Source: a virus
Lineage: Duplodnaviria > Caudoviricetes
Length of the DNA: 64,000 bases
IMG/VR virus record: IMGVR_UViG_3300029955_000001
Reading direction: 5' to 3' (one strand)
The translations under genes and the position numbers were made by a program. This document shows, one piece after another, positions 1-55,083 of the stretch; position 1 is the first letter of the stretch, and every line of letters starts with the position of its first letter. The notes under the pieces were generated by a model. The model searched no databases. It saw nothing but the letters and a program-made list of their open reading frames with translations, and was not told the DNA's origin.

Positions 1-363
1 ATAAATGCGTTCGCATAACTTATCCCTAAAATCATACTCAAATTCAATATTTGATTTATCCTCAGGATGTGTTTCGAAATGGTTATCATACACGGACCAC
101 ATTGCATTGCCGAGTAACTCTAAATGAGTATCAGAACCAAGGCGCTTACTATCACCCAATATATTGGTAAGATGGTGTTTTGGCAATAAAGGCGTATCTT
201 GAAATTCTCGATGAAAATCCCATGAATATGAACTATAGAGCGTTGCCCTATCATTCGTGCTAACGATTTCTCCGTTATCGAATACAAGATCAAAAGACCC
301 TGTTAATATATCCCATAACTCTTTAGTTGTATATTTAAGTAACGTTCTTGCTAATATTTTCAT
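1..363 (-). CDS. non-virion RNAP beta-prime C-terminal subunit (phiKZ gp74-like), 5-prime part, runs off window
   Basis: Manually translated open frame MKILARTLLKYTTKELWDILTG... from ATG at 363 to the window edge. It lies directly after the nvRNAP beta gene, as in phiKZ-like gene order. Confidence 0.7.
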   Translation of the reverse strand, partial: MKILARTLLKYTTKELWDILTGSFDLVFDNGEIVSTNDRATLYSSYSWDFHREFQDTPLLPKHHLTNILGDSKRLGSDTHLELLGNAMWSVYDNHFETHPEDKSNIEFEYDFRDKLCERIY

Positions 364-393
364 TAGTATTCCTTTTTAGTATACGTAAATTAC

Positions 394-2592
394 TTATTTA
401 TACACAACTGTCTGATCACTTTCCCAGTTAGGTTTATAGTCTCTGTATATAAAAGACAATCCGCTACATTCTGAAATATGTTTAACGAGACTTAACGGTC
501 TCGCTCCTCCTAATGGTAAAATCTTTCTATCCACTGCCGATTGAATTGCTGTGGGTTTATCAGCGCCTAGAATACTATACAAAATTTGTTTATGTGCAGC
601 TGGGTTATTATTACGATCGAGAATATCAGCAGTTACTTTTGCACCAGCGTATGCTGCATAGATACGAACCTCAGACTCTCCAAGAGCACGAATTGCTTGT
701 TGTCGAGATGGGTGTGAATGTTTATCAGTATTAGTAACTTGAGACAATACTCCAAAATGTTGTAGTTTGCCGCTGGACACAGCTGTCCAGTCGTCGCCTG
801 TTTTCTCTAACAAAATCATATACACACCGCCAATGCGTACATTATTTTTAGTAATAACGCGTTTACCAGAGTTACCAATGTAACTAACAGGGCCGTACAC
901 TGGTTTATAAAACATTTCTAATTGTTTAATTATTTCTTCTGATTCTGGTTCGTTTTCAGGAGGCATATATAGATAAATGCCATCTTTAATAACTGATGCT
1001 AGATGATCAATACGACGGCCTTTATACTCACCATCTGTAAACCAGACGTGCATCTTTGGAGAAACAATATTATAATAACCTAACAAATATTTCCAAGCGC
1101 GATCTATGGAATCTGGTTGGGTTAGTTCAAGTGTGCTTAGAACTGTTTTAATCTCATGCTCGGAATAACTATCCATTGTTGTCTTGTGTTTAGCGGTTGT
1201 AGCACCAAAGAACCAAGGATGAATATCATTCTTTATTTTAATAACAACATCACGACTAGCCGCATTAATGTATTGTTCGTATAATCGACCAATATTCATT
1301 CGTGAAATAGTAGAATTAGGGTCCATCACGATATCTGCCCGATTACCGTTTTCATCCACAGGCATTTCATCCGGTTCAGCGACGTGTACGATAACTCCCT
1401 TACCACCGTGACAATCTGACAATTTAAATCCTGTAATAGGTTCAATGTCATACTCGATTGTAAACTCCACACGCCAGTCATCTAATTGTGCTTGGCGATA
1501 CAGTTTAATAATCCGGTGTTGGTCGCTATCTACAACAGATAGTGCTTCAACTACCATTCTGTGAAATTCAGGAGTAATTCTTAAGTTCTCACGACGATCG
1601 CTTTTCAGGCGATTATATTCTTCTAGAATTTCCTTATAAAACTCACGTCTAGCTAAGTCGTATTTTTCTACTTGTGTTTCCATTCCAGCAACCGCGTCAG
1701 GTGCGCTATTTTGACTATCGTGTTGTACGCGAATATCAACAATTCTTCCACCAGCACCAGCTGCGTATGTGATTTTATCAAATACAAAATCTGGCTCCAT
1801 AAGAGCACTAACACTTTGTTCAACTACAGCTAATCCTTTATCGTAGCTTCGAAGACACATCAGAATACCGTCATATCGAACGCGATCCCCTATATCAGGG
1901 AATGGCTTGAAGTTATTTTCATCACCATATAAATTCAAAGCAAAACGTTTACTGCCCCATTCAACTGTACGTTGCTCATAAGTCTTAAAAGCAAATCTTC
2001 TTAATACATCTCTACTAATAATTACACCGTCTTCAGAAACCGCTGGATGCGTCATGAAAGCCATATTGCACTGAACACCGTACTTATAACCACCGTTTGG
2101 TGTAATTGACGGTGAGTCTAAAAACACGGTTCCTTCTGCTATAGCAGCACCTGGTCGAATATTTCTAATTCCATCTTGTTCTTTATATTCAAAACCAAAG
2201 TATTGGTGATAAGAACAATACTTAACCAAATTAAATATTCCTACTTCTTTAGTAATTGCGTTTTCATAAATTACTAAAGTTTGAGGATTCATCTTAATTG
2301 AATCAGCACCTATCTTGGGACGATAGCGTGGAATGATCTTGATGATTTCTCCATCGCACGGCATTCTCACTTTGAATGTATATTTACCAAACTCACGCTC
2401 AACACCAGTTTGACAACGACGCTCTGTAGCGCCATTGACAACAAGTGTCTGCGAAATATGACTCGAGAACATTTGCTCTCGACTACTAGAGTTGTGTTGC
2501 CTCCATGGGTTTAACCCATTAACTCCCTGAAACTCACGAAAAAGCTGATTAGAAACCTTAGTGCTCATAACGTTTTCCTTTATGTACAACAT
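394..2592 (-). CDS. non-virion RNAP beta subunit (phiKZ gp71-73-like), uninterrupted; likely start 2568
   Basis: Beta-subunit motifs SSSREQMFSSH, VSEDG, KLSDCHGGKG, ADIVMDP and SRMNIG. SD AAGGAA precedes MSTKV. Confidence 0.9.
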   Translation of the reverse strand: MLYIKENVMSTKVSNQLFREFQGVNGLNPWRQHNSSSREQMFSSHISQTLVVNGATERRCQTGVEREFGKYTFKVRMPCDGEIIKIIPRYRPKIGADSIKMNPQTLVIYENAITKEVGIFNLVKYCSYHQYFGFEYKEQDGIRNIRPGAAIAEGTVFLDSPSITPNGGYKYGVQCNMAFMTHPAVSEDGVIISRDVLRRFAFKTYEQRTVEWGSKRFALNLYGDENNFKPFPDIGDRVRYDGILMCLRSYDKGLAVVEQSVSALMEPDFVFDKITYAAGAGGRIVDIRVQHDSQNSAPDAVAGMETQVEKYDLARREFYKEILEEYNRLKSDRRENLRITPEFHRMVVEALSVVDSDQHRIIKLYRQAQLDDWRVEFTIEYDIEPITGFKLSDCHGGKGVIVHVAEPDEMPVDENGNRADIVMDPNSTISRMNIGRLYEQYINAASRDVVIKIKNDIHPWFFGATTAKHKTTMDSYSEHEIKTVLSTLELTQPDSIDRAWKYLLGYYNIVSPKMHVWFTDGEYKGRRIDHLASVIKDGIYLYMPPENEPESEEIIKQLEMFYKPVYGPVSYIGNSGKRVITKNNVRIGGVYMILLEKTGDDWTAVSSGKLQHFGVLSQVTNTDKHSHPSRQQAIRALGESEVRIYAAYAGAKVTADILDRNNNPAAHKQILYSILGADKPTAIQSAVDRKILPLGGARPLSLVKHISECSGLSFIYRDYKPNWESDQTVVYK

Positions 2593-2674
2593 TGTGTTAT
2601 AACAACTAAATATAAATTTGGAAAAATAATAATCTTTATTGTTATTTTTATGATGTCATTACCACACACTACAC

Positions 2675-2694
2675 TTTAGTGATATATCACTAAA
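2675..2694. promoter_or_regulatory. palindromic early-promoter-like site (TATATCAC on both strands)
   Basis: Perfect 20-bp palindrome TTTAGTGATATATCACTAAA between divergent genes. It resembles the phiKZ early motif TATATTAC. Confidence 0.6.
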
Positions 2695-2719
2695 AACCTT
2701 TACATTAAGAGGAACTCTT

Positions 2720-3058
2720 ATGAATGTCGATAGTTTAATGTTTAATCCTGGTAGTGATATTTACTACGATGCGGGGTTTAGAGTTGTTCTAGAAGATCAC
2801 ATGACGTTATTGAGAAATGATTCAACGACGCAAATCATTGACGTTGCTCCGATGGACGCGTATGTGTACGAGGCTGATCTATTTGGTCTTCTTTCTAAAT
2901 ATGGTGTTGCGCCATATTTACACTGGTTAACAATGCGAATGAACGATATGACTTCTCCGTCTGAGAATGATTTGAAATTAACACAGCTATTAATTCCTTA
3001 CCAAGGAAATATCGACAAGATACGACAGTCGTATACTAGTGTTAACAGAATTACATAA
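2720..3058 (+). CDS. conserved phage protein, possible LysM-like/T4 gp53-like baseplate wedge protein
   Basis: 112 aa with SD GAGGAA. The pattern YEADLFGLL..YG....LHWLTMRMN...SP...LLIP resembles LysM-type baseplate proteins (recall only). Confidence 0.4.
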   Translation: MNVDSLMFNPGSDIYYDAGFRVVLEDHMTLLRNDSTTQIIDVAPMDAYVYEADLFGLLSKYGVAPYLHWLTMRMNDMTSPSENDLKLTQLLIPYQGNIDKIRQSYTSVNRIT

Positions 3059-3254
3059 TGTTTAATTCTTTTGTATTTTTATGAAATGTTTCACATGGTA
3101 ATCCAGCATCTCTACATGCGTGGCAGCAAAACCAATACTCATGACCGTTTTCTGAATCTTCATCGCCGGTAAACACGTACTCACTATGACCTATTGTCCC
3201 GTGACAATACATGCAGTATAGTTCTAAATGACCAAATGTCATAAAAGCTTCCAC
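3051..3254 (-). CDS. small Cys-rich putative zinc-binding protein
   Basis: CxxC ... CCxxC ... C motifs in 67 aa. Confidence 0.55.
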   Translation of the reverse strand: MEAFMTFGHLELYCMYCHGTIGHSEYVFTGDEDSENGHEYWFCCHACRDAGLPCETFHKNTKELNIM

Positions 3255-3265
3255 ATAGAGAAAAA

Positions 3266-3308
3266 AATAGCATCTAATCTTTTTAAGGATTAGATGCTAT
3301 TTATGCCG
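3266..3308. terminator. intrinsic terminator hairpin flanked by TATGCCG
   Basis: Stem ATAGCATCTAATC/GATTAGATGCTAT with an A-run on the left (U-tail on the minus strand). Confidence 0.7.
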
Positions 3309-3314
3309 TATTAT

Positions 3315-4580
3315 TTAAATCGCACCAAACCCACCATTGCGATTGCCATAATTATTATTACCATAACTAGGAGTGTTATAGCTTCGTCCTATTCCTCCTA
3401 ATCCTGCTGGTCTATCCATACCACTACGTGATTGACCTTGCTGATACTGTTGTACGTTATTAGGAGCGCCAATAACAGAACGCAAACTAGGAACAGAACG
3501 AATCAGTGAGTTAAAATCCAAACCACCATTCTCAGTAACTACTGGCGCAGGCTGATACGATTGTGCTGGTTGGCCATATGTGTTTTGTGGTTGTTGTGGT
3601 GGAACTTGCCACGGTTGAAGATTAGTAACTGGAGCGCTTGCAAATGAAGCTGATGTCGCTGCTGCGGCAGGCGTGGTTCCTACGTCAGTATGTAGAGACT
3701 TACCTTCGTTACCAGCTTGCATTGGAACTAAGCGAATCTCTGATTTCATTACTTCGATATTATCGAATGTTTCTTCCCATTCAGATTCAAACAGAAGTTC
3801 ATCTGCCTCATCTTCCATTGTGTTTCTAAACAATTCAATGATAGTGTTCAGATTAGAAGCTACGACACCTACTGTCTTCATCAAAGCATCAAGATAAGGT
3901 GCAAGTTGAGATTCAGTACCAATGTTATATGTTTCAGGCTTATCAATACCTGGAAAAATATAATCCATCAAGCTTATTAAAGATTTAATATCTTTTACAC
4001 GCAGCTTTACACCATAACACTCATGCTCTGATTTTGTCAAGGCTTCGTATAGTGGAAAATGTACAATACCACATCGTGAGTAAGTAGTTCCTCTTACCTT
4101 ACCACCACGTTTTAGGAATATGGATACAAAATTCTTTTGAGAATTACCTTCGCCAAACTGTTCACATACTTTTGCGAAATCGTCAACCGTCTTCTTATCG
4201 ACATTTTTAACATGACTCAGAAAATCGGATTGTTCAGGCGTTAACGACGCATGCTCGTCTATGTGTGAAGCAATTTTTAACAAATGTAATGTTAGAACGT
4301 GCAACACGTAATTAATACGCACAACTAATGATGCTCGAAACTTTTCCAAGACATCAGATTCGCCTTTCAAAAGACTTTCCGATAACGGATGGAATATCAC
4401 GATATTCGACTTATTAGAATTAGCCAAATGTTCTTGAGTAGGAAGAACTAGTCGTTTTCCTTTTACAAGCAATGGTGTTTTTAATTCACCAATTACTTGA
4501 TTCACATAACCGTCGTCAGTAGCCACTAAGTCAGCTGTTTTAAGTATGGATTTATACAAATCCAATAATTTCATTGCCAT
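3315..4580 (-). CDS. conserved Chimalliviridae core protein (phiKZ gp70-like)
   Basis: 421 aa with a low-complexity Q/N/G tail. Position between the PicA-like gene and nvRNAP beta matches the phiKZ block. Confidence 0.6.
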   Translation of the reverse strand: MAMKLLDLYKSILKTADLVATDDGYVNQVIGELKTPLLVKGKRLVLPTQEHLANSNKSNIVIFHPLSESLLKGESDVLEKFRASLVVRINYVLHVLTLHLLKIASHIDEHASLTPEQSDFLSHVKNVDKKTVDDFAKVCEQFGEGNSQKNFVSIFLKRGGKVRGTTYSRCGIVHFPLYEALTKSEHECYGVKLRVKDIKSLISLMDYIFPGIDKPETYNIGTESQLAPYLDALMKTVGVVASNLNTIIELFRNTMEDEADELLFESEWEETFDNIEVMKSEIRLVPMQAGNEGKSLHTDVGTTPAAAATSASFASAPVTNLQPWQVPPQQPQNTYGQPAQSYQPAPVVTENGGLDFNSLIRSVPSLRSVIGAPNNVQQYQQGQSRSGMDRPAGLGGIGRSYNTPSYGNNNYGNRNGGFGAI

Positions 4581-4596
4581 TGCTTTTTTCCTTTAT

Positions 4597-6069
4597 TTAA
4601 ATAACACCGAAACCACCGGAACTTAACGGTGTTTGTATATTCCCATTAGTTTTACCAACGAAATCACAAGGAGATGGTCTAAGCTGACCCATCAGATCAC
4701 TGAAATCGTTTGCTACTGACATAGCTAGTCTACCATTTGTTGTTACTACCGGAACAGTCAATGCATCGCAAAACGATGGCGTGACGTAATCTACTTCTGG
4801 TTTACCGTCCAAAGATATTTTTATCCATGTTTCTCCAAGTAGATCAATTTGCATCGAGATTTCGAACGACATAGCACCCGAATACGATAGATCTTGCAAC
4901 ACTTGGAATTCCATGTTTCGTATGAAATTCTGCAAACCTAAACTATGATCAAATGTATCAGAAAACCCACGTACATCAAAAACGACTGTACTGATTACAC
5001 CGTCTCTAGATTGATTAGTAGTTTTAAACACAACCCAAGTAAGCCCTTGCTCCATAAGCAAACCTGGAATTGCTTGACTTAAAATAGTCGCGGCATGCGT
5101 AACGCCATCAGAACCACCCCAATCAGCAGTTAGTCCTGCTTGATGCACAGTTGCTTTCTCTGTAGCGGACATTAAAACAACGACTGCTAAATTATCAACA
5201 TTAGGGTCAAGTAACATTAATTCATTATAAGAGAAAGAGTCACCAATGGGTCTTCCTGTGACATTACTAATTGCAGATAACAAGGGGTCTTTAGAAGCAA
5301 TATTTTCTGCTGAATAATCTCTAGCGGCTTCTAGAATATCACCACGAGAAGAACCAATACTTGTATCAGCTTCGGAGCTTTTCCAACTCTGCAAGATATT
5401 AGCCATATAGCTTGCCGGTACACCATTTGCTCGCCTTGATTTCATGGCTAGATTATTAGCTATGGTTCTTTCGTCATACATAGTACAATCAGGCGGCAGC
5501 ATATCACGCGTCATTACTGAATAAATATCTTCAGGTCGCATCCGGTGATTTGATACCTGTTGACCAACACCGGACCAGCTATTATCGGTAATCACGTGAG
5601 AATTATCATTGATAGTCACGTGAGTTTGATTACCGAGAGGCGTCCTTTCGATTGTTCGTCTTTCCGTTATAATAGAGTTAACGGTAAAAATCATTCTCGG
5701 ATCAACGCTACCAGACAACGCAACACCATCGTAGTCGGTATAACCCATCACGTTTTCAATTATCTCACTACCGATACCTGGAAATACAGATCTTACTTCC
5801 ATACAGAAACGCATTCGTTTCTGTCCCCAGCCATTCGGAATGTCGATCGTTCCTTCTGGAGTAGGAGACGGACTAACAAAATGACTAGCAATACCAGCGA
5901 CTGTTGTTGGTCCAATTTTATTTGTATTAAATAATCGTTCTTGAATAATGTTCAATGTAGAGCGATCAAGATTTGTATTGTAAGGTCGTCGAAACTGTTG
6001 GTTATACGTGCCGGTTTCATGAATTATCAAACGTGTAATTGCAATTCCTGGTCTCTGATTAAAAGACAT
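4597..6069 (-). CDS. picA: phage nucleus protein import factor PicA/Imp1 (phiKZ gp69-like)
   Basis: 490 aa, immediately downstream of the gp68-like subunit in the conserved block. Assignment is by synteny and size. Confidence 0.65.
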   Translation of the reverse strand: MSFNQRPGIAITRLIIHETGTYNQQFRRPYNTNLDRSTLNIIQERLFNTNKIGPTTVAGIASHFVSPSPTPEGTIDIPNGWGQKRMRFCMEVRSVFPGIGSEIIENVMGYTDYDGVALSGSVDPRMIFTVNSIITERRTIERTPLGNQTHVTINDNSHVITDNSWSGVGQQVSNHRMRPEDIYSVMTRDMLPPDCTMYDERTIANNLAMKSRRANGVPASYMANILQSWKSSEADTSIGSSRGDILEAARDYSAENIASKDPLLSAISNVTGRPIGDSFSYNELMLLDPNVDNLAVVVLMSATEKATVHQAGLTADWGGSDGVTHAATILSQAIPGLLMEQGLTWVVFKTTNQSRDGVISTVVFDVRGFSDTFDHSLGLQNFIRNMEFQVLQDLSYSGAMSFEISMQIDLLGETWIKISLDGKPEVDYVTPSFCDALTVPVVTTNGRLAMSVANDFSDLMGQLRPSPCDFVGKTNGNIQTPLSSGGFGVI

Positions 6070-7725
6070 TTAAAAACTCCTTTGTGCAAGAGAAATAGCA
6101 AGATCAGCTAACTTTATTTTAATATCATGCGATACTACTGTTCTTCTATTATTTTTATTTCCATACAACTGTGCTATCCAACTATCGGGTATTGTTAGTC
6201 TCCAATTACGTTCTACAAATAAATTCGACACGAGATCAATACTCTCAGCAGCTGGATTAGTGCGTTTAGCAGTTTTCTGCTTACCAGATGATCGTTTTGA
6301 ATATGGATATAACGCATCGAGTATTTCTAATTGTTCCTTTTTGATTCTTGCGCGTGAATCAAAATCAACACGAAGTGCATCGTTATTTGTTTCTTCTGCT
6401 GCGCTGACTAAACCAGCTAATTCAAAATATCCTTTGTGCCATAAAGCAGCTTGTGCTACTGCCATTACACCCAATAACAATATCTTACTAATGTGTTGTA
6501 AACCCTTATGAGGAATAACTCTAGCGGTTACCCATTGTGTTAGTAGAATCTGCGGGTCGTATATTTGTTGTGTTTCAAGTGCTTTTATGGATAAAAAAGA
6601 TTGCTCCAATAATTCAATTTTAATATCTGGACATAGTTTGAAAGCAAGGGACATTATGTCTTGAGCATAATACGCGATAGTGATAATATCGCCTTCCGAT
6701 ATCTCTTGTTTTATTTTGTAACCTTCGAGTTTCGATAAATTGTTTTCGCCTTCTTGGCTTTGTCCTTCTACAATTTTATCTTTCACTAAACCTATAAAAC
6801 TATTGTCATGACCTTTTGATCTCTGTCCAATGTATTTGTAGATAAATGTAGCTAAATTAGAATTTTGATCTAATCCCCTAACATCGCCTATACTTAAACG
6901 TCGCACCAACACCATTGACAACATCCACGTTGGATAATCTTCAGTGCTTAGTCCATCTAGTATCGGTGATGATTTTGATTTCTCTGATGGAATAGTAGCT
7001 ACTACATACCGTCGTAACTTTTCCATTTCACTTGAATTTATTAACAACGTTTTTGTTAATAACCTACAAGCATAATACTCTTTAAATACTGTTCCAATTT
7101 CTTTCTTTGTTCGCTGAATGAATTCACCCCAAATAGGTATCATCGGGCGCAATAAGATTGACAGTGCCACCAATCCTTTATAATCTTTTTGATCATAAGT
7201 CCGATCACGTGTTCGTGAGTTATCAGCTGCTTCTACAAACTCAACCTCAATATTCTGAGGTATTTGTATATAGCTATAAAACTCACACCAATGTTTTACT
7301 TTTTCTAAATCATGAAAACTAAACAATTGTTCAATCAACACATACAACTTTTTTGTTAGTTCGTTTGTGTCCCATTCCGAATCAAATGTTTCTTTTATAT
7401 TCAAATAACATTTAAATATATTAGTTTGTTCTACCTGAGGTAACTGTGACCAATATTGATTAATCTCTTCAAAGATATCAAAATCACCACTGAATGATAC
7501 CTTATCAAATAAAGCAATATTCCATTCAATAACTAAATCTAAGTTTTTTCCAAGATGGTCTTTATTGTCAACTCGAATTATCTTGACTATGTCGTCAATA
7601 TCTAAATACGATTTACCAGCTAGTTCTTCTAATTGACTTGCGTTTACTATTAGTCCGCTTTTATGGACAACCATTGCGGTTGTTGGGACACCTTGCGCTG
7701 TTGTTCTAATTGTTATAAGTTTCAT
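6070..7725 (-). CDS. non-virion RNAP promoter-specificity (sigma-like) subunit, phiKZ gp68-like
   Basis: 551 aa alpha-helical protein in the conserved position, preceded by an early promoter motif. Confidence 0.7.
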   Translation of the reverse strand: MKLITIRTTAQGVPTTAMVVHKSGLIVNASQLEELAGKSYLDIDDIVKIIRVDNKDHLGKNLDLVIEWNIALFDKVSFSGDFDIFEEINQYWSQLPQVEQTNIFKCYLNIKETFDSEWDTNELTKKLYVLIEQLFSFHDLEKVKHWCEFYSYIQIPQNIEVEFVEAADNSRTRDRTYDQKDYKGLVALSILLRPMIPIWGEFIQRTKKEIGTVFKEYYACRLLTKTLLINSSEMEKLRRYVVATIPSEKSKSSPILDGLSTEDYPTWMLSMVLVRRLSIGDVRGLDQNSNLATFIYKYIGQRSKGHDNSFIGLVKDKIVEGQSQEGENNLSKLEGYKIKQEISEGDIITIAYYAQDIMSLAFKLCPDIKIELLEQSFLSIKALETQQIYDPQILLTQWVTARVIPHKGLQHISKILLLGVMAVAQAALWHKGYFELAGLVSAAEETNNDALRVDFDSRARIKKEQLEILDALYPYSKRSSGKQKTAKRTNPAAESIDLVSNLFVERNWRLTIPDSWIAQLYGNKNNRRTVVSHDIKIKLADLAISLAQRSF

Positions 7726-7766
7726 ATGTTTTTCCTTTATTTACACAACACATACTACTCACTTTA

Positions 7767-7774
7767 GTGATATA
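7767..7774 (-). promoter_or_regulatory. early promoter motif TATATCAC
   Basis: Context ACTTTAGTGATATATGACT is shared with the chimallin promoter and lies about 42 nt upstream of the ATG. Confidence 0.6.
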
Positions 7775-7814
7775 TGACTATATTTGTTTGTATTGCCATC
7801 ACCTTAAAAACTAC

Positions 7815-7860
7815 GGTAGAAAGTAACCTAAGCCTTCCGAGCCAGGGTTACTTTCTACCG
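7815..7860 (-). terminator. long hairpin after the ChmC-like gene
   Basis: 15-bp stem CGGTAGAAAGTAACC/GGTTACTTTCTACCG. Confidence 0.55.
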
Positions 7861-7891
7861 CTACAATATGAACTTATTTCACTACAATTAA

Positions 7892-8605
7892 TTAGAACGG
7901 GAGATCAGTATCGCCGCCGATGTCGTCCTGGGAATTATTGCCTCCGCCGCTAGAACGACCGCCGTTATAATTATTAGGGCGACCACCACCATTGTCTTTC
8001 GGCTTTGGCGCTTCGTAGTTGTCTGCGAGCATTGTCGGCATCAACTCAGTTAAGATGTCCGCGTACGCAGCAGCGCACCATTCAGAAACCTTTGCAATCG
8101 GGAACTCAGAACCATCCCCATGCACATAGCGATGAAAGCGGCTCTGTGGCAGGAAAGGAAATTTAATACGAGGGCGTCCTTTAGTTGTAGATGCTACTGA
8201 AATCCATAGCAAACCATTATCGTCTTTTCCAACATAAATTTCACTTACAACAACAGGCTGTTCACTACGTTTCCCACCTGGGAAAATAAAGTTCTTACAT
8301 TCCAATCTAAACTTACGTTCGTCAACTGGTGCTGTTACAGGAACCTTAATCATTTCACGAATACCGTGAATAAGCATGAAGAAATTTGGCACGTCTACAT
8401 TACCAGAAATTTTTCCGTATCCGTTACTTTCACCAGTGTCTTTAGGATCTCCTGTATATACGGTAATACGAGGGTTATTAGCGTACAATCCCCAAACCAA
8501 ATTAGACCACTTTGAGTCGTCACCAGGACACTTCACTGACAGACTAAGTTTATTGTTATCTAAAGCATTTTTCACACGCGGTGGAGCTTGATAATTACCA
8601 GCCAT
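7892..8605 (-). CDS. chmC: nucleic-acid-binding nuclear shell-associated protein ChmC-like (phiKZ gp67-like)
   Basis: 237 aa with a globular N-terminal domain and a G/N-rich disordered tail ending DTDLPF. It lies directly upstream of the gp68-like gene. Confidence 0.6.
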   Translation of the reverse strand: MAGNYQAPPRVKNALDNNKLSLSVKCPGDDSKWSNLVWGLYANNPRITVYTGDPKDTGESNGYGKISGNVDVPNFFMLIHGIREMIKVPVTAPVDERKFRLECKNFIFPGGKRSEQPVVVSEIYVGKDDNGLLWISVASTTKGRPRIKFPFLPQSRFHRYVHGDGSEFPIAKVSEWCAAAYADILTELMPTMLADNYEAPKPKDNGGGRPNNYNGGRSSGGGNNSQDDIGGDTDLPF

Positions 8606-8685
8606 GATTAACTTCCTTTTATTAAATGTTGTATTCTGACGCTCAAATTATGAGTCATGTCAGTAATAAATTACTGTATATTATA

Positions 8686-9531
8686 TTAACCATTCCTAAT
8701 TAATACTTCTTGAAGAATAGCACGTGTGTACGGATCTTTAATAGCGCTTATACTCATAGACAGCTTGTCGTATGTTGATACCGCGCTCCATTTATAATGG
8801 GTAGCTATATCTATAATCTCTCGACGAACCTTAATTGGCATTGGTTGAAACTGCTCATTATCGCCAAATACCTGAATAAGATCCTCTCGAAATGGAATCA
8901 TAGATAAGTTTGATCCTTGATAATATTTCGTATACCAAAGTGCTCTGTCTTTGAGTTTACCAGTATGAGATTCAATCAGTACTAATTTATTAAATTCTCT
9001 ATAAGACAATAAATCATAAGCGTAGTGTGTTAAAATTAAAGCTTTTGTTTTAACAGGTGACTTTATCTTTAAAGTAAATTTAACGATTTCACTAGGATGC
9101 TCAGTTAACAATATATTCATTGTTAAATTATGAAAAGCTGTATACTCTTTTTGTTTTGGAGTATTGTCTACTCTTAACTGAGCGTGTTTATATAAGTGTG
9201 TCATGTTAGCATAGTCGCTATAATAGAACACTACTTTAGTTTTACCTTTTGTTACGTCATTTACGATAGATGTAATCACATCCATTTCTACCGCTATTTC
9301 AGCAGCTACTTGATTTGGAAGTACAAGACCTGCATCTTCTTTATTTAAACTCCCCATAAGGTTTCTAAATAAAGTACGCGTGTTGACATAAAGTTCTTGG
9401 TAATCTTTTATAGGCGGATATTCCGTAGGATAATCTTCATGTATGCCGCACAAAGCCTCTTTAGCCAACGATGTAGCAATGCTTAAATTATACTGGCCTA
9501 CCGCCCTATTAGAAATGGCATCTGTATTCAT
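8686..9531 (-). CDS. conserved protein (phiKZ gp66-like), possible PIN/5-prime nuclease-like fold
   Basis: Motif LYVNTRTLFRN and synteny with the SbcD-like gene. Confidence 0.45.
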   Translation of the reverse strand: MNTDAISNRAVGQYNLSIATSLAKEALCGIHEDYPTEYPPIKDYQELYVNTRTLFRNLMGSLNKEDAGLVLPNQVAAEIAVEMDVITSIVNDVTKGKTKVVFYYSDYANMTHLYKHAQLRVDNTPKQKEYTAFHNLTMNILLTEHPSEIVKFTLKIKSPVKTKALILTHYAYDLLSYREFNKLVLIESHTGKLKDRALWYTKYYQGSNLSMIPFREDLIQVFGDNEQFQPMPIKVRREIIDIATHYKWSAVSTYDKLSMSISAIKDPYTRAILQEVLIRNG

Positions 9532-10637
9532 TCTACCTCCACCATGATACTATTCGCAGCATCTAACATTAAATCAGATGCGCCATTATTCACCATACGT
9601 TCAATTAATAATCCTTTAAGATTATCTTTCGTTAACGTAATCGGCACAAATAATTCTTCTTTATCTACAATTGATTTTTCTTCTTCTATAGTTTTTGATG
9701 GTAATTTTGACCAACTATAAAAAGGAAACTGTCTAATTAGCATTTCCATATTTTCAAATATGGGGTTATCACTATCTGCCTCAACACGCACAAATGAGTT
9801 AGCTGGTAAGTCCTTTACTTTTTCTTCAATAAGTGCTAGAGTGTCTGGTAGTGTTAAACCAAAACAATGAACAGTAATGAATTTCTTTGCTCCTTTATTT
9901 TCAACAAATGTAATTTGATATTTTCCATTATCTCGTACTGTTGCACGAATATGTCCTTTTGGTTCTTCTTCACCATGTGCTAATCTATCAAAAGAACCTT
10001 GTGCAATAATGCGATCAAACTGTGTATAGGTGTGTATGTGTCCAATTAATATTAAATTCTTAACTAGGGATAAATACGCACTGGCGTTATGAACTGGTGA
10101 TTTAACGTACGAGGGTAACTGATGATCGAACGTACCATGCATTATCGCGTAATCTACTTTAGTAAGCCCTTTTGCTTTTAACAGTTCATGGACTTGGCTT
10201 AGTGTTTTATCAGTTGTTGTCTCCCATTCATCAGGTACATAGAGCACGGTTATCCCGTAGCGCTCTATGTACTCGATGGATAGTTCTTTAACGTATTTTA
10301 GTTCAGCGCCAATGCCTGCTAAGGTGTTCGTGTTTGGAAATATCTCTGATTGTTTCCAATCATGCGAAGGTGTCCCTTCCAATACACGAACTAGAATATC
10401 GTGCTTCTTGCATAGTCGCAGAAAATGCGCTACCCAGAATTTAATATCCCATACTTCTTCATCTGATAAATTCATTAAATCGTGAAATACATCACCAGCT
10501 AAAAAAATAATATCTAATTCAGCTGTTTCAGCATTATCAGGAAAAGCTTTTTTAAGATTTTCAATAATCTCAGCTGTAGGATTCTTCCTATGGCCAAGAT
10601 GCAAATCAGAAATCACTGCTATTTTAAGTTCCTTCAT
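9528..10637 (-). CDS. SbcD/Mre11-like metallophosphoesterase nuclease
   Basis: Motifs ISDLHLG, FLAGDVF, GTPSHD, MHG and IGHIH. Confidence 0.85.
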   Translation of the reverse strand: MKELKIAVISDLHLGHRKNPTAEIIENLKKAFPDNAETAELDIIFLAGDVFHDLMNLSDEEVWDIKFWVAHFLRLCKKHDILVRVLEGTPSHDWKQSEIFPNTNTLAGIGAELKYVKELSIEYIERYGITVLYVPDEWETTTDKTLSQVHELLKAKGLTKVDYAIMHGTFDHQLPSYVKSPVHNASAYLSLVKNLILIGHIHTYTQFDRIIAQGSFDRLAHGEEEPKGHIRATVRDNGKYQITFVENKGAKKFITVHCFGLTLPDTLALIEEKVKDLPANSFVRVEADSDNPIFENMEMLIRQFPFYSWSKLPSKTIEEEKSIVDKEELFVPITLTKDNLKGLLIERMVNNGASDLMLDAANSIMVEVE

Positions 10638-10711
10638 TTAAATATCTCCAAGAAGGATATTTGTTTAACGCATGGTCGCTCATAACGTTGCGTGAAGTGT
10701 TAAAATAATTC

Positions 10712-11296
10712 TTATTCTGATATAAATTCAAAATCGTCCGTATCATCGACTTCGTCTGTGGTGTTGTTAATTATTTTCTTTTGATCGGCAGTAAGCTCTA
10801 CAATAGGCAGTCTGCCGTATCTTGTAAAAATACTGTTCCATATAGCCAGATCTTTTAAAACATTACCCGGAACTTTCATGATAAGCGCACGCTTGGTCAA
10901 TTCCGTTGTAAGATAACGAAGTCCTTGTCTCGGACTTTGATTTGCTATCTGTCCGGCAGTAGTAACTACAGATGAAATAGGAACCTTATAATCGCTCGGT
11001 TTCACTGGATTTACTGCTTCTCTATTTAATAGAGGAGGAACTGTAAACAAAATATTATCATTTCTATCAACAACATGAACAGACTTGTACGGACTCCCAG
11101 CGTAGTTTAACCATGTTTCCATATTCACGTTGTAGTGTAATTGCTCATCTCCAGCAAACACTGGTAAGAAAACACCAACAAACACACGCTCTGGTAAACG
11201 TTTAATATCTTCTTCTGCTATTTGAATTAATCGTTTTGTAACAATGTTACTATCGCCAGTTTGTTTTTGTTCTGCAAATTTATCAATGTTAATCAT
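10712..11296 (-). CDS. conserved hypothetical protein
   Basis: 194-aa ORF in the conserved core block. Confidence 0.6.
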   Translation of the reverse strand: MINIDKFAEQKQTGDSNIVTKRLIQIAEEDIKRLPERVFVGVFLPVFAGDEQLHYNVNMETWLNYAGSPYKSVHVVDRNDNILFTVPPLLNREAVNPVKPSDYKVPISSVVTTAGQIANQSPRQGLRYLTTELTKRALIMKVPGNVLKDLAIWNSIFTRYGRLPIVELTADQKKIINNTTDEVDDTDDFEFISE

Positions 11297-11306
11297 GATT
11301 TACTTT

Positions 11307-11774
11307 CTAAGTAGCAGACCCAGTATTATTCAATTTAACAATGGTCTCCACTATTGAATTTTGAATATTTAATAGTCTGCCAATAGAATAAGTAGTGCCG
11401 TTTTCTGTAACATCACACTGAATGCCAACCGAAACCTTATCTGTCAAATTCGTAGCATTATCATCTGTTGTGATAACAATGTTGACAACTTGATAATAAC
11501 GTCCAAGATACGTGTCAAGAGTTCGTCGTAATTGGTTACTAAAATTAGTGATATCGTTACCGTATTGTTCAATTAACCATTGTATATTTGAAATTCTACC
11601 AGCGTACAAATATGATTGAATATAGTCTGCTTCAAAAAAATGGCTAATCAAAAAATCCGCTTTTTCAGCAGTGGCGAATACCCAACCAGCAGGAGATAAA
11701 GTTGGGACCGGTACAGTGGCTGTGCTGAACGTAGTAATTACATCTGATGCAGTGACTAGTGTTGTAGATGTCAT
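11307..11774 (-). CDS. conserved protein, possible T4 gp25-like baseplate/sheath initiator
   Basis: 155 aa. The pattern L...L..YLGRYY..V.I.I followed by beta strands fits by recall only. Confidence 0.4.
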   Translation of the reverse strand: MTSTTLVTASDVITTFSTATVPVPTLSPAGWVFATAEKADFLISHFFEADYIQSYLYAGRISNIQWLIEQYGNDITNFSNQLRRTLDTYLGRYYQVVNIVITTDDNATNLTDKVSVGIQCDVTENGTTYSIGRLLNIQNSIVETIVKLNNTGSAT

Positions 11775-11872
11775 TTTCTAATTCTCTATAATCGGGTAAC
11801 ACATTATGTATCGGGTATGGAAAAAAAAACAGACCTAATCCAAAATACGGACTAAGTCTGTTAGTGTTATAT

Positions 11873-12523
11873 TTACATCATCCCACCAAAGCCTGATGTT
11901 GGGTCTTCTTTTCCAGCATCAATGATGGCTTTTACATTAGCCCATGTTATCAAGATATCAGATTGTTCATCTATATCTAACTCACGATCACCTTCCTTTA
12001 AGTCGTCGATGAACTGTGTATGAGACCACCCAGCTTCACTATCCCCATCTACTGGCAGATCTGTTACAATTCCATCCATTACGCGACGATAGTCGTAATG
12101 CTCGTCACCTGTTGCTTCTGGCTGCACGTCTACATATGTTTCAGAATACCCATCAATACGTTGTTGATGATACAATGTTCTGACAGTAGGCTCAGCCATT
12201 ATCCATCGTTGCATTTGTAGTTGTGCTATTTGAAACTCAGTCACTTCGCATAGTGGTTTAATTACATCCTTTTGGAATAAATTACTTACTTTCTTGTATG
12301 CTACACGTGATAAACGCATTGCCTCACTACCGTTGAACTTTTCAATAAGTTCAGAACTATCTTGTAGAAATGTTCTCCCAGCGTCGGTAAGAGTATTACT
12401 AAAATTATTTAATTGATTTTTAATAAAGTCTACTGTACTAGGATGTTTAGGCGAGTACAATAGAGCATTAAATTCTTGCGCACCGCCTATTAATACTTGC
12501 GCCATTGATTCTCCTTTTTTCAT
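11873..12523 (-). CDS. conserved core protein (phiKZ gp59-like); likely start 12505
   Basis: SD AAGGAG before MAQVLIGG. It follows nvRNAP beta-prime N. Confidence 0.55.
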   Translation of the reverse strand: MKKGESMAQVLIGGAQEFNALLYSPKHPSTVDFIKNQLNNFSNTLTDAGRTFLQDSSELIEKFNGSEAMRLSRVAYKKVSNLFQKDVIKPLCEVTEFQIAQLQMQRWIMAEPTVRTLYHQQRIDGYSETYVDVQPEATGDEHYDYRRVMDGIVTDLPVDGDSEAGWSHTQFIDDLKEGDRELDIDEQSDILITWANVKAIIDAGKEDPTSGFGGMM

Positions 12524-12750
12524 TACTGCACAAAAAGTAATTCTGACATTCGTTGAAACTTAACCGGATCAACAACACTGTCGTCGCTATGAATATACGA
12601 AGCCAATGTGCTGACAACTGGTTTCGGCATCGATAAATTTCGCGATACCATACGTGGGTTATTCAAATCAAAAGTTGATTTATGCGGAGCTAGATTCTTT
12701 AATTGTTCCGTTATACATGTATCGATTGATAATGTTGCGTTTAACTGATC
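12523..12750 (-). CDS. nvRNAP beta-prime N subunit (gp55-like) exon 3
   Basis: Starts GAT CAG TTA AAC (DQLN...) right after intron-terminal G 12751. 75 aa to TAA, which overlaps the next ATG. Confidence 0.85.
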   Translation of the reverse strand, partial: DQLNATLSIDTCITEQLKNLAPHKSTFDLNNPRMVSRNLSMPKPVVSTLASYIHSDDSVVDPVKFQRMSELLFVQ

Positions 12751-13045
12751 CTTTTGTCCATCTAATTCGTTAGATTAGATCGGTATGCTGAATACCTGCT
12801 TTATGTTTCCATAAAGAACTGACTATATCTTCTATTCGTAATGAATAGCCTTCCGTTTCGGAATCACTTGATTCCTACTCGCTTACGCGATAGTCGATGA
12901 ACCTTCTCCTGTACGGAGCTTGGCTGCTGATTGCCCAATCTCTATTCTTTTAAAACCTTGGCTTTGTCTTTCGACTCGCAGTGGTGAATAAAGCTCTCAG
13001 GGGTTTCCAGACAGTTAAAAAGGTTTTTAGACAGCAATTTTGTTT
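12751..13045 (-). mobile_element. group I intron (ORF-less, 295 nt), second intron of nvRNAP beta-prime N
   Basis: P AACTGTCTGGAAAC, Q AATCAGCAGCCAAG, R GTTCATCGACTA, S AAGATATAGTCAG. IGS GCTGTC pairs with exon GACGGT (U-G at the splice site). Ends in G. Confidence 0.9.
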
Positions 13046-13065
13046 ACCGTCAAAATCTGCATTAA
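13046..13065 (-). CDS. nvRNAP beta-prime N exon 2: 20-nt micro-exon encoding (F)NADFDG
   Basis: Sequence TT AAT GCA GAT TTT GAC GGT lies between an intron-terminal G and a U-G splice site. Splicing restores VVGFNADFDGDQ. Confidence 0.88.
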
Positions 13066-13492
13066 CTTATTGTCCAATTAGTTCGTTACACTAACCCGGT
13101 ATGTTGTACCTGCTATATATCTCTATATAGAACAGACTATATCTTCATCCTCAGCTTTATCTGTTTGGATGTCCACTGCTTCGGAGCCACTAGCTCCTAC
13201 TCCCATTACAGGATAGTCGTTGAACCTTCATCATTCTTAAATGGTTACCAATTTACATGGTAACGATTAGGCTCTTTCATTTAAGTTAAGATGCTTGGCT
13301 GCTGATTGTCTCTACCAGATTATTTTCAAACATTGACGTATGTGTTTTCACACTCCGCTTTAGTTAATCTGTCTAACAAGAGTTTCCAGCAATTCAATGG
13401 ATTTACATTTATCATTACTGATAAACTGGCCTGTATAAATATTATTTATAGTAATAGTATATTATTTTACTATAGAATTACTTATGTTCCTA
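13066..13492 (-). mobile_element. group I intron (ORF-less, 427 nt), first intron of nvRNAP beta-prime N
   Basis: P AATTGCTGGAAACTC, Q AATCAGCAGCCAAG, R GTTCAACGACTA, S AAGATATAGTCTG. IGS GGCC pairs with exon GGCT. Ends ...GGACAATAAG. Confidence 0.9.
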
Positions 13493-14717
13493 AGCCTACT
13501 ACTGACAAAATTGAAAGTGATACAGTGGGGATGTTCGGATCAGTTTTTATTTTCGTAACAAACATTGCTTGTGCTGACCCGCGTTCCAAACTCGGATTTC
13601 TTTGAAATATCACAGGTATGCCCTTGTATGGACATTCATTAATTAACAACTGAAACAGTTCATCTAACAGTGGATGATACTTTTGTGAATGTTCGTTTAG
13701 AAATGCTTTTGCACCATTGGGAGTAAATCCTCTACGCAATAGTTTATTCGTTAAATGAATACCTAATACGGATACTCCAATACCCCACGGGACATGCAAT
13801 TCATCATAATCGTGATTCGCTGTAAGCGATGAAATCACTGCTCTGAAACTAAAATGTGATCTAGTTCCAAATACATGTTTTCTAAATATTCCTTCTTTTT
13901 TAGCTAATGTAAAACGATATAAATCGTCATAAAAATCAGACAGTTGATAAATTGCTTTAATCGTCCTATTTTGTTTTGTTCTAACGGAATGATTTGCCAA
14001 TAAATTATCAATGCTACACATGGTGCGGATCGCGTCCACTGCTCCTGTTACAATTGGATCAACATATGTTCCTACGGTTGTTTCCTCAATAACCAATAGG
14101 GAACGATTAGGCAATGGCAGATAGTCAGAGAACACACAAGATCTTTGCTCTCTCAACAATTGTTCTAAAGGTTCTTCTACGCCTTTCTTTGCTCTGAATC
14201 CTTTTACATTAAATAACGATGCGATAATACTATCAAAGTTATCAACAAAATTATTATAACCTCGTTGGATTCCTAGCTCTTGTACAGTTTCCATAATTGC
14301 CGGAACTTTGACAGCTGGGTGATATGTACTGTCAGCTATCCATCGAATAATGTCGTATCCAGATTTTGAAAACTTTTCGGATAACATTGTTAACACAATT
14401 GGATTGATAAGTTTACTCACTCCTTCTGGCGCTCTAATCCAAACTAACGGCTCAAGATCTTGTTCTAAAGGTGCCTTTACGAATGTTCCGCATTGTTTAC
14501 ACTTCACACCAACGTTATGTTCTCCCTTTATTTCCTGGCATTCGCAAGTAGGCAAATTACTAAGAAGATCGGTATTGTATTTGGTGTAAATCATCGCATT
14601 AAAAGCTTCTTTATCTATTTCAGAACCTTCTGATACGTTGTTAATAATGATTGGTTCTTTAGTGCTATATTTTGAAAACAGTTCATCAAAGTTTACGAGT
14701 TCCAGTGAAATTCCTAT
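13493..14717 (-). CDS. nvRNAP beta-prime N subunit (gp55-like) exon 1, probable ATA start; spliced product about 490 aa
   Basis: Zn-ribbon CECQ..C..C and motifs RKHVFGTR, FSFRAVI and QRNPSL. The frame is open 41 codons upstream of the ATG at 14594, back to an ATA 6 nt after AGGAG. Confidence 0.88.
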
Positions 14718-14747
14718 GATGTTCTCCTGTGGATTTTAAATCAGAGG

Positions 14748-14809: not shown

Positions 14810-16672
14810 TTACTGCCAGCGGCTGAAACCACGATTTGCACCAGACGGTGTCGCGTTTTGATTATAACCACTGCGGAAGATACCGCTCGATTCAGGGGTC
14901 AACAAAGTATGACCCGAGAACTGTGAGCGAGCACGTTCGTAATTACCAAGATCCTGATACGAGTATACAGGCTTCAGAACCAAACCAGCTTCTTGGCAAC
15001 CCTTAACTAGTGCGTTAATGAAACCGACTTCAAACGTGACGCGGCGAGCGTAGCCTGTGAATACCGCGTTATTGCAAATTGATTGGATGATACGTTTCCG
15101 TTCATACAAGCGTTTCGGCAGAGGGATATGTGTGCTTGCAAAAGAATCAGACCACAACTTAATTGCACCTGGGTCTTGTGCGCCGACACAATTCAACACT
15201 GCCAAATAATCAATATCGCGAATGTCTGCACGTTCACCACGAGAGTTCGTGTAATGACCCAGATGGATACGATTGTATTCATCAGTTGCGACACGGCCCT
15301 TTGGATCAAAATACTTTACAAAGTTACCATTCGTAAGCTCGTTAGCGGCTTTAAGAATAGCGATATTTGCTTGGGTATTCCCAGCGGCAGCTGCCGAGAA
15401 TACTTCATTGAACCAGGTCTGAGCACCGCATTCCGGCACATCCAAGGACACCACAAGACCAGGACGAATTGTTGCCTTAACCAACTGCCCGAGATTTTCT
15501 GGTTTAAACTTATCGGCATGTGTGTCAATGCGTTGACCAACGCCACTTGGATCATTGCTAAAGTTAACTTCGATGCCAATAGCACCGATATCACGGAAGT
15601 CTACGTCGCCAGAAGGAAAATCCCTTGGACGGAAACCTTGAACCCAAGCGTTGTTTTCGCCGAGGCCAACGACTGGAACTAGCGCCAATAATTGCGCTGG
15701 AATAGTAAGCAGTTCGGTTGATTCCATCGTTGTTGCAACAAACCGAGCAGCGTAACGCTGAAAAGATTGTTGTGTTGGATCTGGAATACCGTACAAGTTT
15801 TGTGGCGCAACGATAGGGTCCCAGAAGATATCCAGGAAACCACCAATTCGCGCGATAGGTGCTTCACGTCCAGCATCTTGCTGTTGTGTTTGTTGCGACT
15901 GCACTGGTGCAGCGGTAAAATCCAATACGATATCACTGCGCAATGGCGCACCGACCGCATCTTGTTGTTGTGGCATTGCAAACTGTGTTCGCACTGACAA
16001 AGTGGAATCATTCTTAGCGTTTGCAATATTGATATCTTCAAAGTTCTTGCTATTAATTTCAAGCTCAGAAGTACATGCAAAAATAGCATTTGCAATCAAT
16101 ACGTGCAATGCCGATTTGTCTTCAACGTTAAAGTCCTTAGGAACAACACAAGCACCTGCGTTACGTGGTGTGTCTTGCGGAAACAACCGCTGAACGTAAC
16201 CAAGCACAACACCCTTCAAAGTATCGTTGCAGGAATCACCAGCAGTATAGAGAATCTCAACGGATTGACCGTTAATCATTTCTGGCTTAGGTGTGCGAAT
16301 ATCCGCAGACGCTTCGAGCAACAACGAGTGATACGCAACACCCAACAATGGGTTCTGCTTATCACGAACAGCGAGAATCAAAATAGAAATCGACAAGTTT
16401 GGTGTTTGTTCTTTTTCAATTGGAACCAAATTGATTTCAAAACTCTTATCGGCTTTTTCTGTGATCATCTCAGTCATTGCTTTGGTGATCTTGTTCAATG
16501 CTTCCGATGCCTGTGTGCGACTGAATGCAGGCCGTGACAACTTGCGCAGATTGGTGAAGCTGTACCCAGTGCTATCGGCTTTGGTTTGATGATCACGATT
16601 AGGTGCAAAACTACCAGTAGGGTTGTTTTGAACTTCTGCACCATTGCCAGTACTTTCGTCTTTAATAGCCAT
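14810..16672 (-). CDS. chmA: chimallin, phage nuclear shell protein
   Basis: 620 aa, directly upstream of nvRNAP beta-prime N as in phiKZ gp54-gp55. It has its own early promoter and terminator and extended N- and C-terminal tails. Confidence 0.8.
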   Translation of the reverse strand: MAIKDESTGNGAEVQNNPTGSFAPNRDHQTKADSTGYSFTNLRKLSRPAFSRTQASEALNKITKAMTEMITEKADKSFEINLVPIEKEQTPNLSISILILAVRDKQNPLLGVAYHSLLLEASADIRTPKPEMINGQSVEILYTAGDSCNDTLKGVVLGYVQRLFPQDTPRNAGACVVPKDFNVEDKSALHVLIANAIFACTSELEINSKNFEDINIANAKNDSTLSVRTQFAMPQQQDAVGAPLRSDIVLDFTAAPVQSQQTQQQDAGREAPIARIGGFLDIFWDPIVAPQNLYGIPDPTQQSFQRYAARFVATTMESTELLTIPAQLLALVPVVGLGENNAWVQGFRPRDFPSGDVDFRDIGAIGIEVNFSNDPSGVGQRIDTHADKFKPENLGQLVKATIRPGLVVSLDVPECGAQTWFNEVFSAAAAGNTQANIAILKAANELTNGNFVKYFDPKGRVATDEYNRIHLGHYTNSRGERADIRDIDYLAVLNCVGAQDPGAIKLWSDSFASTHIPLPKRLYERKRIIQSICNNAVFTGYARRVTFEVGFINALVKGCQEAGLVLKPVYSYQDLGNYERARSQFSGHTLLTPESSGIFRSGYNQNATPSGANRGFSRWQ

Positions 16673-54730: not shown

Positions 54731-55083
54731 CCTTTTGTCCAATTAGTTCGTTAGACTAACCCGGTGTGCACTGACACCCGCCTACATTTTCATGTAGGAG
54801 CAGATCATATCTTCATCCTCTATTTCTAGTTAGGATGTTTCCCATTTCTGTCCACTTGGACTCTACACCGTGGTAAGCGGTTGATCGTTGAACCTTTTCC
54901 ATTTTACAGGAACTTGGCTGCTAAAGAGGATCTTAGATCCTACGGTTGCCCATTGTAATATCCGTTTCGTTTTTAGACCATGGCTTTGTCTTTCGACTCG
55001 CAGTGGTGAAACAGCTTTAGGGGGTTCCAGCAGTTAGAGAAAATTCATTTGAACATTACTAATCAAATGGACTATATTTTTTA
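54731..55083 (-). mobile_element. group I intron (ORF-less, 353 nt) in vRNAP beta
   Basis: P AACTGCTGGAAC, R GTTCAACGATCA and S AAGATATGATCTG (covaried P7). Ends TGGACAAAAGG. Confidence 0.88.

Follow-up and report, generated by a model that had tools for sequence, protein, structure and literature searches.

How can a phage produce an intact RNA polymerase (RNAP) subunit when the codons for its catalytic motif lie on an exon of only 20 nucleotides (nt), enclosed on both sides by introns? This question is raised by the gene at positions 14717-12523 (minus strand) of the window, the 64,000-nt stretch of IMG/VR virus record IMGVR_UViG_3300029955_000001 (Duplodnaviria; Caudoviricetes) analysed here. 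By sequence comparison, the gene is an ortholog of phiKZ gp55, the N-terminal beta-prime-like subunit of the non-virion RNAP (nvRNAP). Two different mobile group I introns very probably occupy its NADFDGD-coding stretch, each excising itself and leaving the 20-nt exon in place to give a frame of 490 amino acids (aa). The arrangement is genuine, and the micro-exon is retained in the mature mRNA, as supported by spliced and circular RNA contigs from environmental transcriptomes.

A split polymerase gene and its two group I introns

Exon-intron boundaries were set by the rules for group I introns, in which the 5′ exon ends in U and the intron ends in G (Table 1). Joining the three exons gives an in-frame coding sequence of 1473 nt and a product of 490 aa, in which both junctions are read through as ...SILSVVGFNADFDGDQLNATL... 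and the stretch spanning the micro-exon reads ...SVVGFNADFDGDQLN. The NADFDGD motif is thereby restored in silico, and the spliced protein aligns across ...VVGFNADFDGDQLN, including both junctions, without a gap to the uninterrupted homologs FLC9 gp381 and RP12 ORF287. The unspliced reading is a minus-strand open frame that runs from 14735 to a stop at 13482, with the tail ...SILSVVGLGT; the database copy of the gene (P0003) is a 357-aa open reading frame (ORF) ending in ...VVGLGT, truncated by automatic gene calling. Direct joining of exon 1 to exon 3, computed from the sequence, causes a frameshift with an immediate stop (VVG-stop). An earlier note on this DNA, made from the letters alone, had described a 20-nt exon encoding (F)NADFDG with two tandem group I introns on either side of it; its coordinates, intron and exon lengths (427, 295, and 20 nt), letters, and product of about 490 aa are all correct, and it had rightly predicted that skipping would delete the motif and shift the frame, and that automated annotation misses the micro-exon.

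The assignment of the gene as an RNAP gene, likewise made in the earlier note, can be narrowed to the non-virion polymerase subunit. Exon 1 matches positions 2-412 of the phrog_2987 profile ("RNA polymerase beta subunit", E = 7e-138) and exon 3 matches positions 422-477, with the 20-nt exon filling positions 415-421, which follow the final two residues of exon 1. Among solved structures, the best match is PDB 7ogp_A (phiKZ gp55, deposited as PHIKZ055+PHIKZ056.1; E = 2.8e-76), and the cysteines of a zinc-binding cluster (C64, C66, C79, and C82) are invariant. Neither exon 1 nor exon 3, taken alone, has a match in Pfam; only PHROGs, PDB, and homolog searches identified the family. Among cultured relatives, the closest is the uninterrupted gp381 of Burkholderia phage FLC9, at 59.6% identity (tblastn, exon 1). 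The nearest known relatives in the homolog search are at most 76% identical in protein, those from an IMG/VR search at most 41%, and exon 3 alone, used as a protein query, retrieved relatives of 54-67% identity only.

The start codon appears to be a non-canonical ATA (14715-14717); no other in-frame start aligns with the starts of homologs, which are GTG or ATG, as in FLC9 gp381 and RP12 ORF287. The first in-frame ATG, GTG, or TTG lies 41 codons inside the gene, and the codons preceding it are conserved. The ATA site is covered by one RNA contig (X14 rec12), without differences.

Both intervening sequences match the Rfam group I intron model RF00028 above its gathering score of 50: intron 1 at 13447-13113 (89.2 bits, E = 1e-22) and intron 2 at 13055-12799 (83.4 bits, E = 6e-21), each over model positions 1-253. 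The two introns have a common catalytic core, and ~72% of their aligned columns are identical. What separates them is a P1 extension of 69 nt and an insertion of 52 nt; in a set of ~50 related introns, neither is among the other's eight best matches. A search of 13492-12751 for sense-strand ORFs longer than 31 aa found none, and neither intron thus carries an endonuclease gene; such genes may have been lost, may never have been carried, or may be depended on in trans.

Each ribozyme is predicted to recognise its own 5′ splice site. For intron 2, the internal guide sequence GCUGUC pairs at all six positions with the last six bases of the micro-exon, GACGGU, to form helix P1, which consists of four Watson-Crick pairs, one internal G.U pair, and a U.G wobble at the splice site. 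This helix is lengthened by two further A-U pairs and is present in both the minimum-energy fold and the Rfam alignment. Among relatives with an intron at the same point (site D), P1 pairs at six of six positions in 13 of 15, and in two of these 13 (L022 and L067) the exon sequence GATGGT is matched by the compensating guide GCCATC. The proposal in the earlier note that the micro-exon supplies P1 of intron 2 is therefore upheld by both full pairing and covariation. An exon of 20 nt can thus serve two ribozymes, even when its 3′ end forms the substrate helix of the downstream one. For intron 1, the guide GGCC pairs with the end of exon 1, GGCU, with a U.G pair at the splice site. By inspection, each guide set against the other intron's splice site forms only 3 of 6 and 2 of 4 pairs. 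In an engineered-intron study, guide differences between tandem introns disfavoured exon skipping (PMC10136302). Since the guides here do not fit each other's splice sites, inclusion of the exon would be the default outcome: the introns would be excised independently, the 20-nt exon retained, and the 490-aa frame restored.

Spliced and circular RNA in environmental transcriptomes

The stretch is present in public peat and permafrost sequencing runs: three DNA runs contain 100% of the sampled words, compared with 43-53% in seven metatranscriptome runs. Contigs were examined from four RNA runs belonging to four studies (X13, X14, X16, and X17). In three of these runs, a contig passes from exon 1 to exon 3 with 19 letters between them (Table 1) and with no other differences from the window, giving identity over as many as 494 nt. 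Because the micro-exon and intron 1 begin with the same letter, T, the aligner extends exon 1 to 13492; the 19 letters thus agree exactly in number with the rest of the 20-nt exon, which would read TAATGCAGATTTTGACGGT. Of the isoforms that the earlier note proposed to look for, the doubly spliced form is seen, at the contig level, in three metatranscriptome runs, and no contig in the four RNA runs joins exon 1 directly to exon 3.

The excised intron 1 was also recovered, as circular contigs of 456 nt (X14 and X16) and 452 nt (X17). These correspond to circles of 426 and 422 nt plus a 30-nt assembler overlap, with joints 13066->13491 and 13066->13487, and are closed at the predicted terminal G (omega-G) with the loss of one or five 5′ nucleotides. 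Excised group I introns such as that of Tetrahymena typically circularise, losing a few nucleotides from the 5′ end. The depths of the circle contigs were 34-203, versus ~2-17 for the exon contigs, contig depth being a poor measure of level. The environmental RNA support therefore covers both the spliced mRNA and the circular intron.

The RNA contigs of the same runs contain almost nothing of intron 2. One contig (X13 rec3) crosses the boundary between intron 2 and exon 3, indicating that some precursor RNA or DNA is present; none of the RNA contigs listed crosses the boundary between exon 1 and intron 1. Two further joints, X14 13233->13286 and X16 13230->12918, are short-sided and probably derive from related introns of other phages; the second is a contig of 303 nt with 12 foreign letters between the joined positions.

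These data bear on whether the spliced contigs could be an artefact, either because they come from an intron-less strain (as DNA or RNA) in the same peat or because the tandem arrangement arose as a chimera during assembly. DNA may be present in the RNA libraries, and intron-less alleles exist in distant relatives. However, at least three DNA runs contain all of the sampled words, introns included, and the spliced contigs match the window letter for letter over up to 494 nt, whereas the nearest relatives reach at most 76% even in protein. In addition, the lack of listed RNA contigs across the exon 1/intron 1 boundary and the cutting of the intron 1 circle exactly at the predicted splice sites are both at odds with an artefact, which we regard as highly improbable. 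Two other candidates were rejected. The gene is not a pseudogene, its three exons being open and conserved and its RNA spliced. The 742 nt between exons 1 and 3 are not one composite intron, in which case the protein would lose the motif; the RNA contigs carry 19 extra letters.

Several points weigh against excision of two independent introns with retention of the exon. The 19 junction letters were counted rather than read, their identity following from the exact length in three contigs, and contigs drop rare isoforms, so that some exon skipping or regulated splicing may go unseen. The P1 helix of intron 1 is just 4 bp, weaker evidence than that for intron 2; the GGCU/GGCC pairing spans the long P1 extension and appears in the centroid fold only, and a search by eye for a P10 pairing in intron 1 found none convincing. 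Finally, independent self-splicing without helpers is a prediction from the sequences of the two introns.

Table 1. Coordinates of the split polymerase gene, its splice-site guides and surroundings, and the exon-joining RNA contigs, in positions of the window
Feature	Position	Strand	Length	Description
Exon 1	14717-13493	minus	1225 nt	Starts at non-canonical ATA; ends in U (...GTA GGC T)
Intron 1	13492-13066	minus	427 nt	ORF-less group I intron; extended P1; terminal G at 13066
Middle micro-exon TTAATGCAGATTTTGACGGT	13065-13046	minus	20 nt	Two bases of a Phe codon plus N-A-D-F-D-G
Intron 2	13045-12751	minus	295 nt	ORF-less group I intron; terminal G at 12751
Exon 3	12750-12523	minus	228 nt	75 codons plus TAA (12525-12523); starts GAT CAG (D-Q-L-N)
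Intron 1 guide GGCC	13431-13428	minus		Pairs with exon 1 end GGCU (U.G at splice site)
Intron 2 guide GCUGUC	13035-13030	minus		Pairs 6/6 with last six micro-exon bases GACGGU (P1)
AGGAG, Shine-Dalgarno-like	14724..14728	minus		6 nt upstream of ATA start; read directly
Chimallin (phage nuclear shell protein)	14810..16672	minus	620 aa	phrog_4795, E = 2.5e-90; directly upstream
Contig X13 rec4	exon 1 13985-13492; exon 3 12750-12721		543 nt	19 letters between exons
Contig X14 rec9	exon 1 13707-13492; exon 3 12750-12656		330 nt	19 letters between exons
Contig X16 rec14	exon 1 13562-13492; exon 3 12750-12400		662 nt	19 letters between exons; exon 3 part extends past compared stretch

Introns at the same motif in related loci

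A protein search returned 729 homologs, and 88 related loci were fetched (89 with the window); exons were mapped with a hidden Markov model (HMM) of the family, in which the motif occupies positions 410-416. Among the best 120 of the 729 homologs, 54 have the full motif and ~60 break off within or just before it, with read-through tails that begin after ...NA, ...NAD, ...NADFDG, or ...VVG. The 89 loci comprise 44 that are uninterrupted at the motif, 33 that are interrupted with both sides visible, 10 that break off at the motif and whose 3′ part lies beyond the locus, and 2 that do not cover it. Exons of 9-20 nt escape gene callers, which consequently cut short this essential subunit of the polymerase in the window and in about half of its relatives; in many jumbo-phage genomes the active-site motif therefore looks "missing".

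The introns are inserted at eight or more points within ~24 nt of motif-coding sequence. Reading of the junctions places them after the first base of the codon that precedes Asn (window and L067), after AAY (L078 and phiKZ), after GCT, after the first GAY, after GAYT and after GAYTT (L073, L018), after the second GAY (L079), and after GGT, the point of intron 2 in the window. Single introns of ~1.2-1.7 kb are found in seven loci (L016, L022, L027, L054, L055, L078, and L079), and nine of the 33 interrupted loci have two or three introns at the motif; among the 88 loci other than the window, at least eight have such tandem introns, around exons of 9-12 nt. A 12-nt exon, GAYTTYGACGGT, lies between two introns in five loci (L028, L034, L038, L041, and L061), a 9-nt exon, TTCGACGGT, lies in L014, and three tandem introns enclose exons of 12 and 9 nt (CCAAATGCTGAT and TTTGATGGT) in L067. 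Rfam group I models are matched on both sides in L014, L028, L032, L034, L038, L041, and L050, and only downstream at threshold in L061. L067 has four such matches: its polymerase gene (4637-6150) contains four group I introns, the fourth ~35 codons upstream of the motif, and the first two of the tandem introns are probably duplicates, since their 3′ halves are nearly identical. In L032 (2040-2500), exon 1 seems to end before the Asn codon and joining a 12-nt piece fails to restore the motif, possibly owing to a sequencing frameshift or another tiny exon. A second hot spot is located ~35 codons upstream of the motif, between QRN and PSLxR in a conserved sequence (HMM position ~374), in nine loci (L010, L038, L039, L042, L043, L049, L050, L067, and L085). 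The 9- and 12-nt exons and the three tandem introns are natural test cases for the shortest exon tolerated by group I splicing, and such family-wide 9-12-nt exons add to the interest of the locus, together with the environmental RNA evidence and the circular intron.

This distribution is informative about whether the arrangement regulates the polymerase. The earlier note had suggested that splicing could gate the switch to middle/late transcription; in such a scheme, inclusion or skipping of the micro-exon, or the rates of splicing, would time the production of active nvRNAP at the early-to-middle switch. The gene does encode the predicted catalytic subunit of the nvRNAP, skipping would yield a truncated product without the motif, and exon skipping occurs in engineered constructs and in orf142 of phage Twort (PMC10136302); the contig spanning intron 2 and exon 3 would also fit some unspliced RNA. 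However, relatives carry zero, one, two, or three introns at varying sites (at least eight points) in the same motif, FLC9 and RP12 carrying none. Because both number and site vary, no conserved regulatory device is apparent, and the free variation in intron number and position has the pattern of competing selfish introns. Moreover, the assemblies of three runs yielded the exon-included form alone, and the guides are specific to their own splice sites, which suppresses skipping (PMC10136302). A gate of this kind therefore finds no support and is improbable, and a regulatory role is likely to be absent.

Two independent invasions by selfish introns are the most economical explanation. Two mobile group I introns would have separately invaded the most conserved stretch of the gene, the NADFDGD-coding sequence, with the hot spot set by its extreme sequence conservation. 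The dense insertion sites fit recent work in which nucleus-forming phages infecting the same cell use intron endonucleases as weapons against each other; for example, the intron endonuclease gp210 in the virion RNAP gene of PhiPA3 is a weapon against phiKZ (PMC11620839; review PMC12908238).

Such conflict raises the possibility that stacked introns are protective, the ORF-less introns breaking the recognition sequences of homing endonucleases from co-infecting relatives, so that the essential active-site codons would escape nicking, and being kept by selection rather than drift. Endonuclease-carrying introns are found at the same or adjacent sites (at the intron 2 site in phage Totoro, and between N and A in phiKZ, where the gene is gp56), the single introns of ~1.2-1.7 kb in seven loci are long enough for an endonuclease gene, PhiPA3 gp210 demonstrates that such nucleases can be weapons between chimalliviruses (PMC11620839), and multiple occupancy is frequent, at nine of the 33 interrupted loci. 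Nevertheless, cleavage by these enzymes is predicted only, half of the relatives survive without an intron at the motif, and purely selfish invasion, with the recognition sequence lying to one side of an existing intron, gives stacking equally well. Selection for protection is thus a possible but rather unlikely reason for the arrangement. A broader form of the same idea is offered here tentatively, as one that we would sooner expect to fail than to hold: the ~24 nt encoding NADFDGD may be an arms-race hot spot at which at least eight intron lineages and nicking endonucleases compete, stacking of two to three ORF-less introns with exons of 9-20 nt may be selected as a shield, and the 9-nt exons may mark the shortest workable exon, because six of the nine bases form P1 of the downstream intron.

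Known systems, neighbouring genes, and other introns in the window

The feature described here belongs with the Twort-type tandem introns and lies in a gene family in which introns were already known. Its internal exon, 20 nt between 13066 and 13045, places it among tandem group I introns with an internal exon shorter than ~35 nt. Introns 2 and 3 of orf142 in Staphylococcus phage Twort are separated by a 23-nt exon and undergo exon skipping (Landthaler and Shub 1999, as summarised in PMC10136302). As in the window, a very short exon of a phage protein gene (23 versus 20 nt) has a group I intron on each side. The Twort pair, however, is highly similar and shows skipping, whereas the window introns are ~72% alike, have different guides, and gave no skipped contig; the short exon of the window also differs in carrying a catalytic motif. 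The same paper cites tandem group I introns around a 34-nt exon in the 23S rRNA of Coxiella burnetii; unlike the window, this is a bacterial rRNA gene with introns of different subgroups, for which exon skipping was reported (PMC10136302). A small exon between two introns is also known in phage phiNIT1 (PMC11878797).

Closer parallels come from the polymerase gene itself. In phiKZ (gp55/gp56 (HNH)/gp56.1), as in the window, the orthologous gene adjoins chimallin and is interrupted inside the NADFDGD-coding stretch; phiKZ, however, has one ~1.4 kb HNH intron between the Asn and Ala codons, in contrast to the two ORF-less introns, other insertion points, and 20-nt exon of the window. HNH-carrying group I introns were predicted in phiKZ RNAP genes in 2002, and a long-read study saw no splicing under its conditions (PMC10914365). 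Serratia phage vB_SmaS-Totoro (Moabitevirus) has an intron at exactly the intron 2 site (directly after ...GAC GGT) with the same guide, GCTGTC, but this is a single intron with an HNH endonuclease ORF and, unlike in the window, there is neither an upstream intron nor a micro-exon.

In Escherichia phage Goslar (gp247/Intron_gpI/HNH/gp185), the same gene adjoins the nuclear shell gene, and a 13-nt exon, CGACGGTGACGCT, was read from the sequence; it is preceded by an HNH-carrying intron and followed by a second intervening sequence. The order in NC_048170 (L090, 4258-6050) is GAC TT, the intron with HNH, CGACGGTGACGCT, the second intervening sequence, and ATG AAC. The Goslar record lists one Intron_gpI, the HNH gene, and separate small ORFs, leaving the 13-nt exon unannotated. 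The Goslar splice points (after GAC TT and after GCT) differ from those of the window, and only the first intron is near the Rfam threshold (46.9 bits), the second not being confirmed as group I. A literature search found no paper on tandem introns or micro-exons in the catalytic motif of an RNAP.

The order of the shell gene directly before the polymerase subunit gene, seen in the window, is also that of phiKZ (gp54-gp55), Goslar, FLC9, and RP12.

Besides the nvRNAP, phages of this family normally encode a virion RNAP, which has a DFDGD of its own. The earlier note had treated the finding of the motif in another gene as evidence against its proposal; a second DFDGD gene, that of the virion RNAP, is in fact present in the window, but this is not decisive. 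The virion RNAP beta-prime gene (62380-64000, minus strand) is also split inside its catalytic motif: the intron, which holds a long ORF running off the end of the window, ends in ...GTAAG at 62381, and the exon resumes with T GAT GGC GAT (F-D-G-D). The same motif is thus interrupted in both polymerases of the phage. A further four group I introns score above the Rfam threshold on the minus strand, at 54781-55096, 56054-56380, 59068-59477, and 62414-62811, making six in 64 kb.

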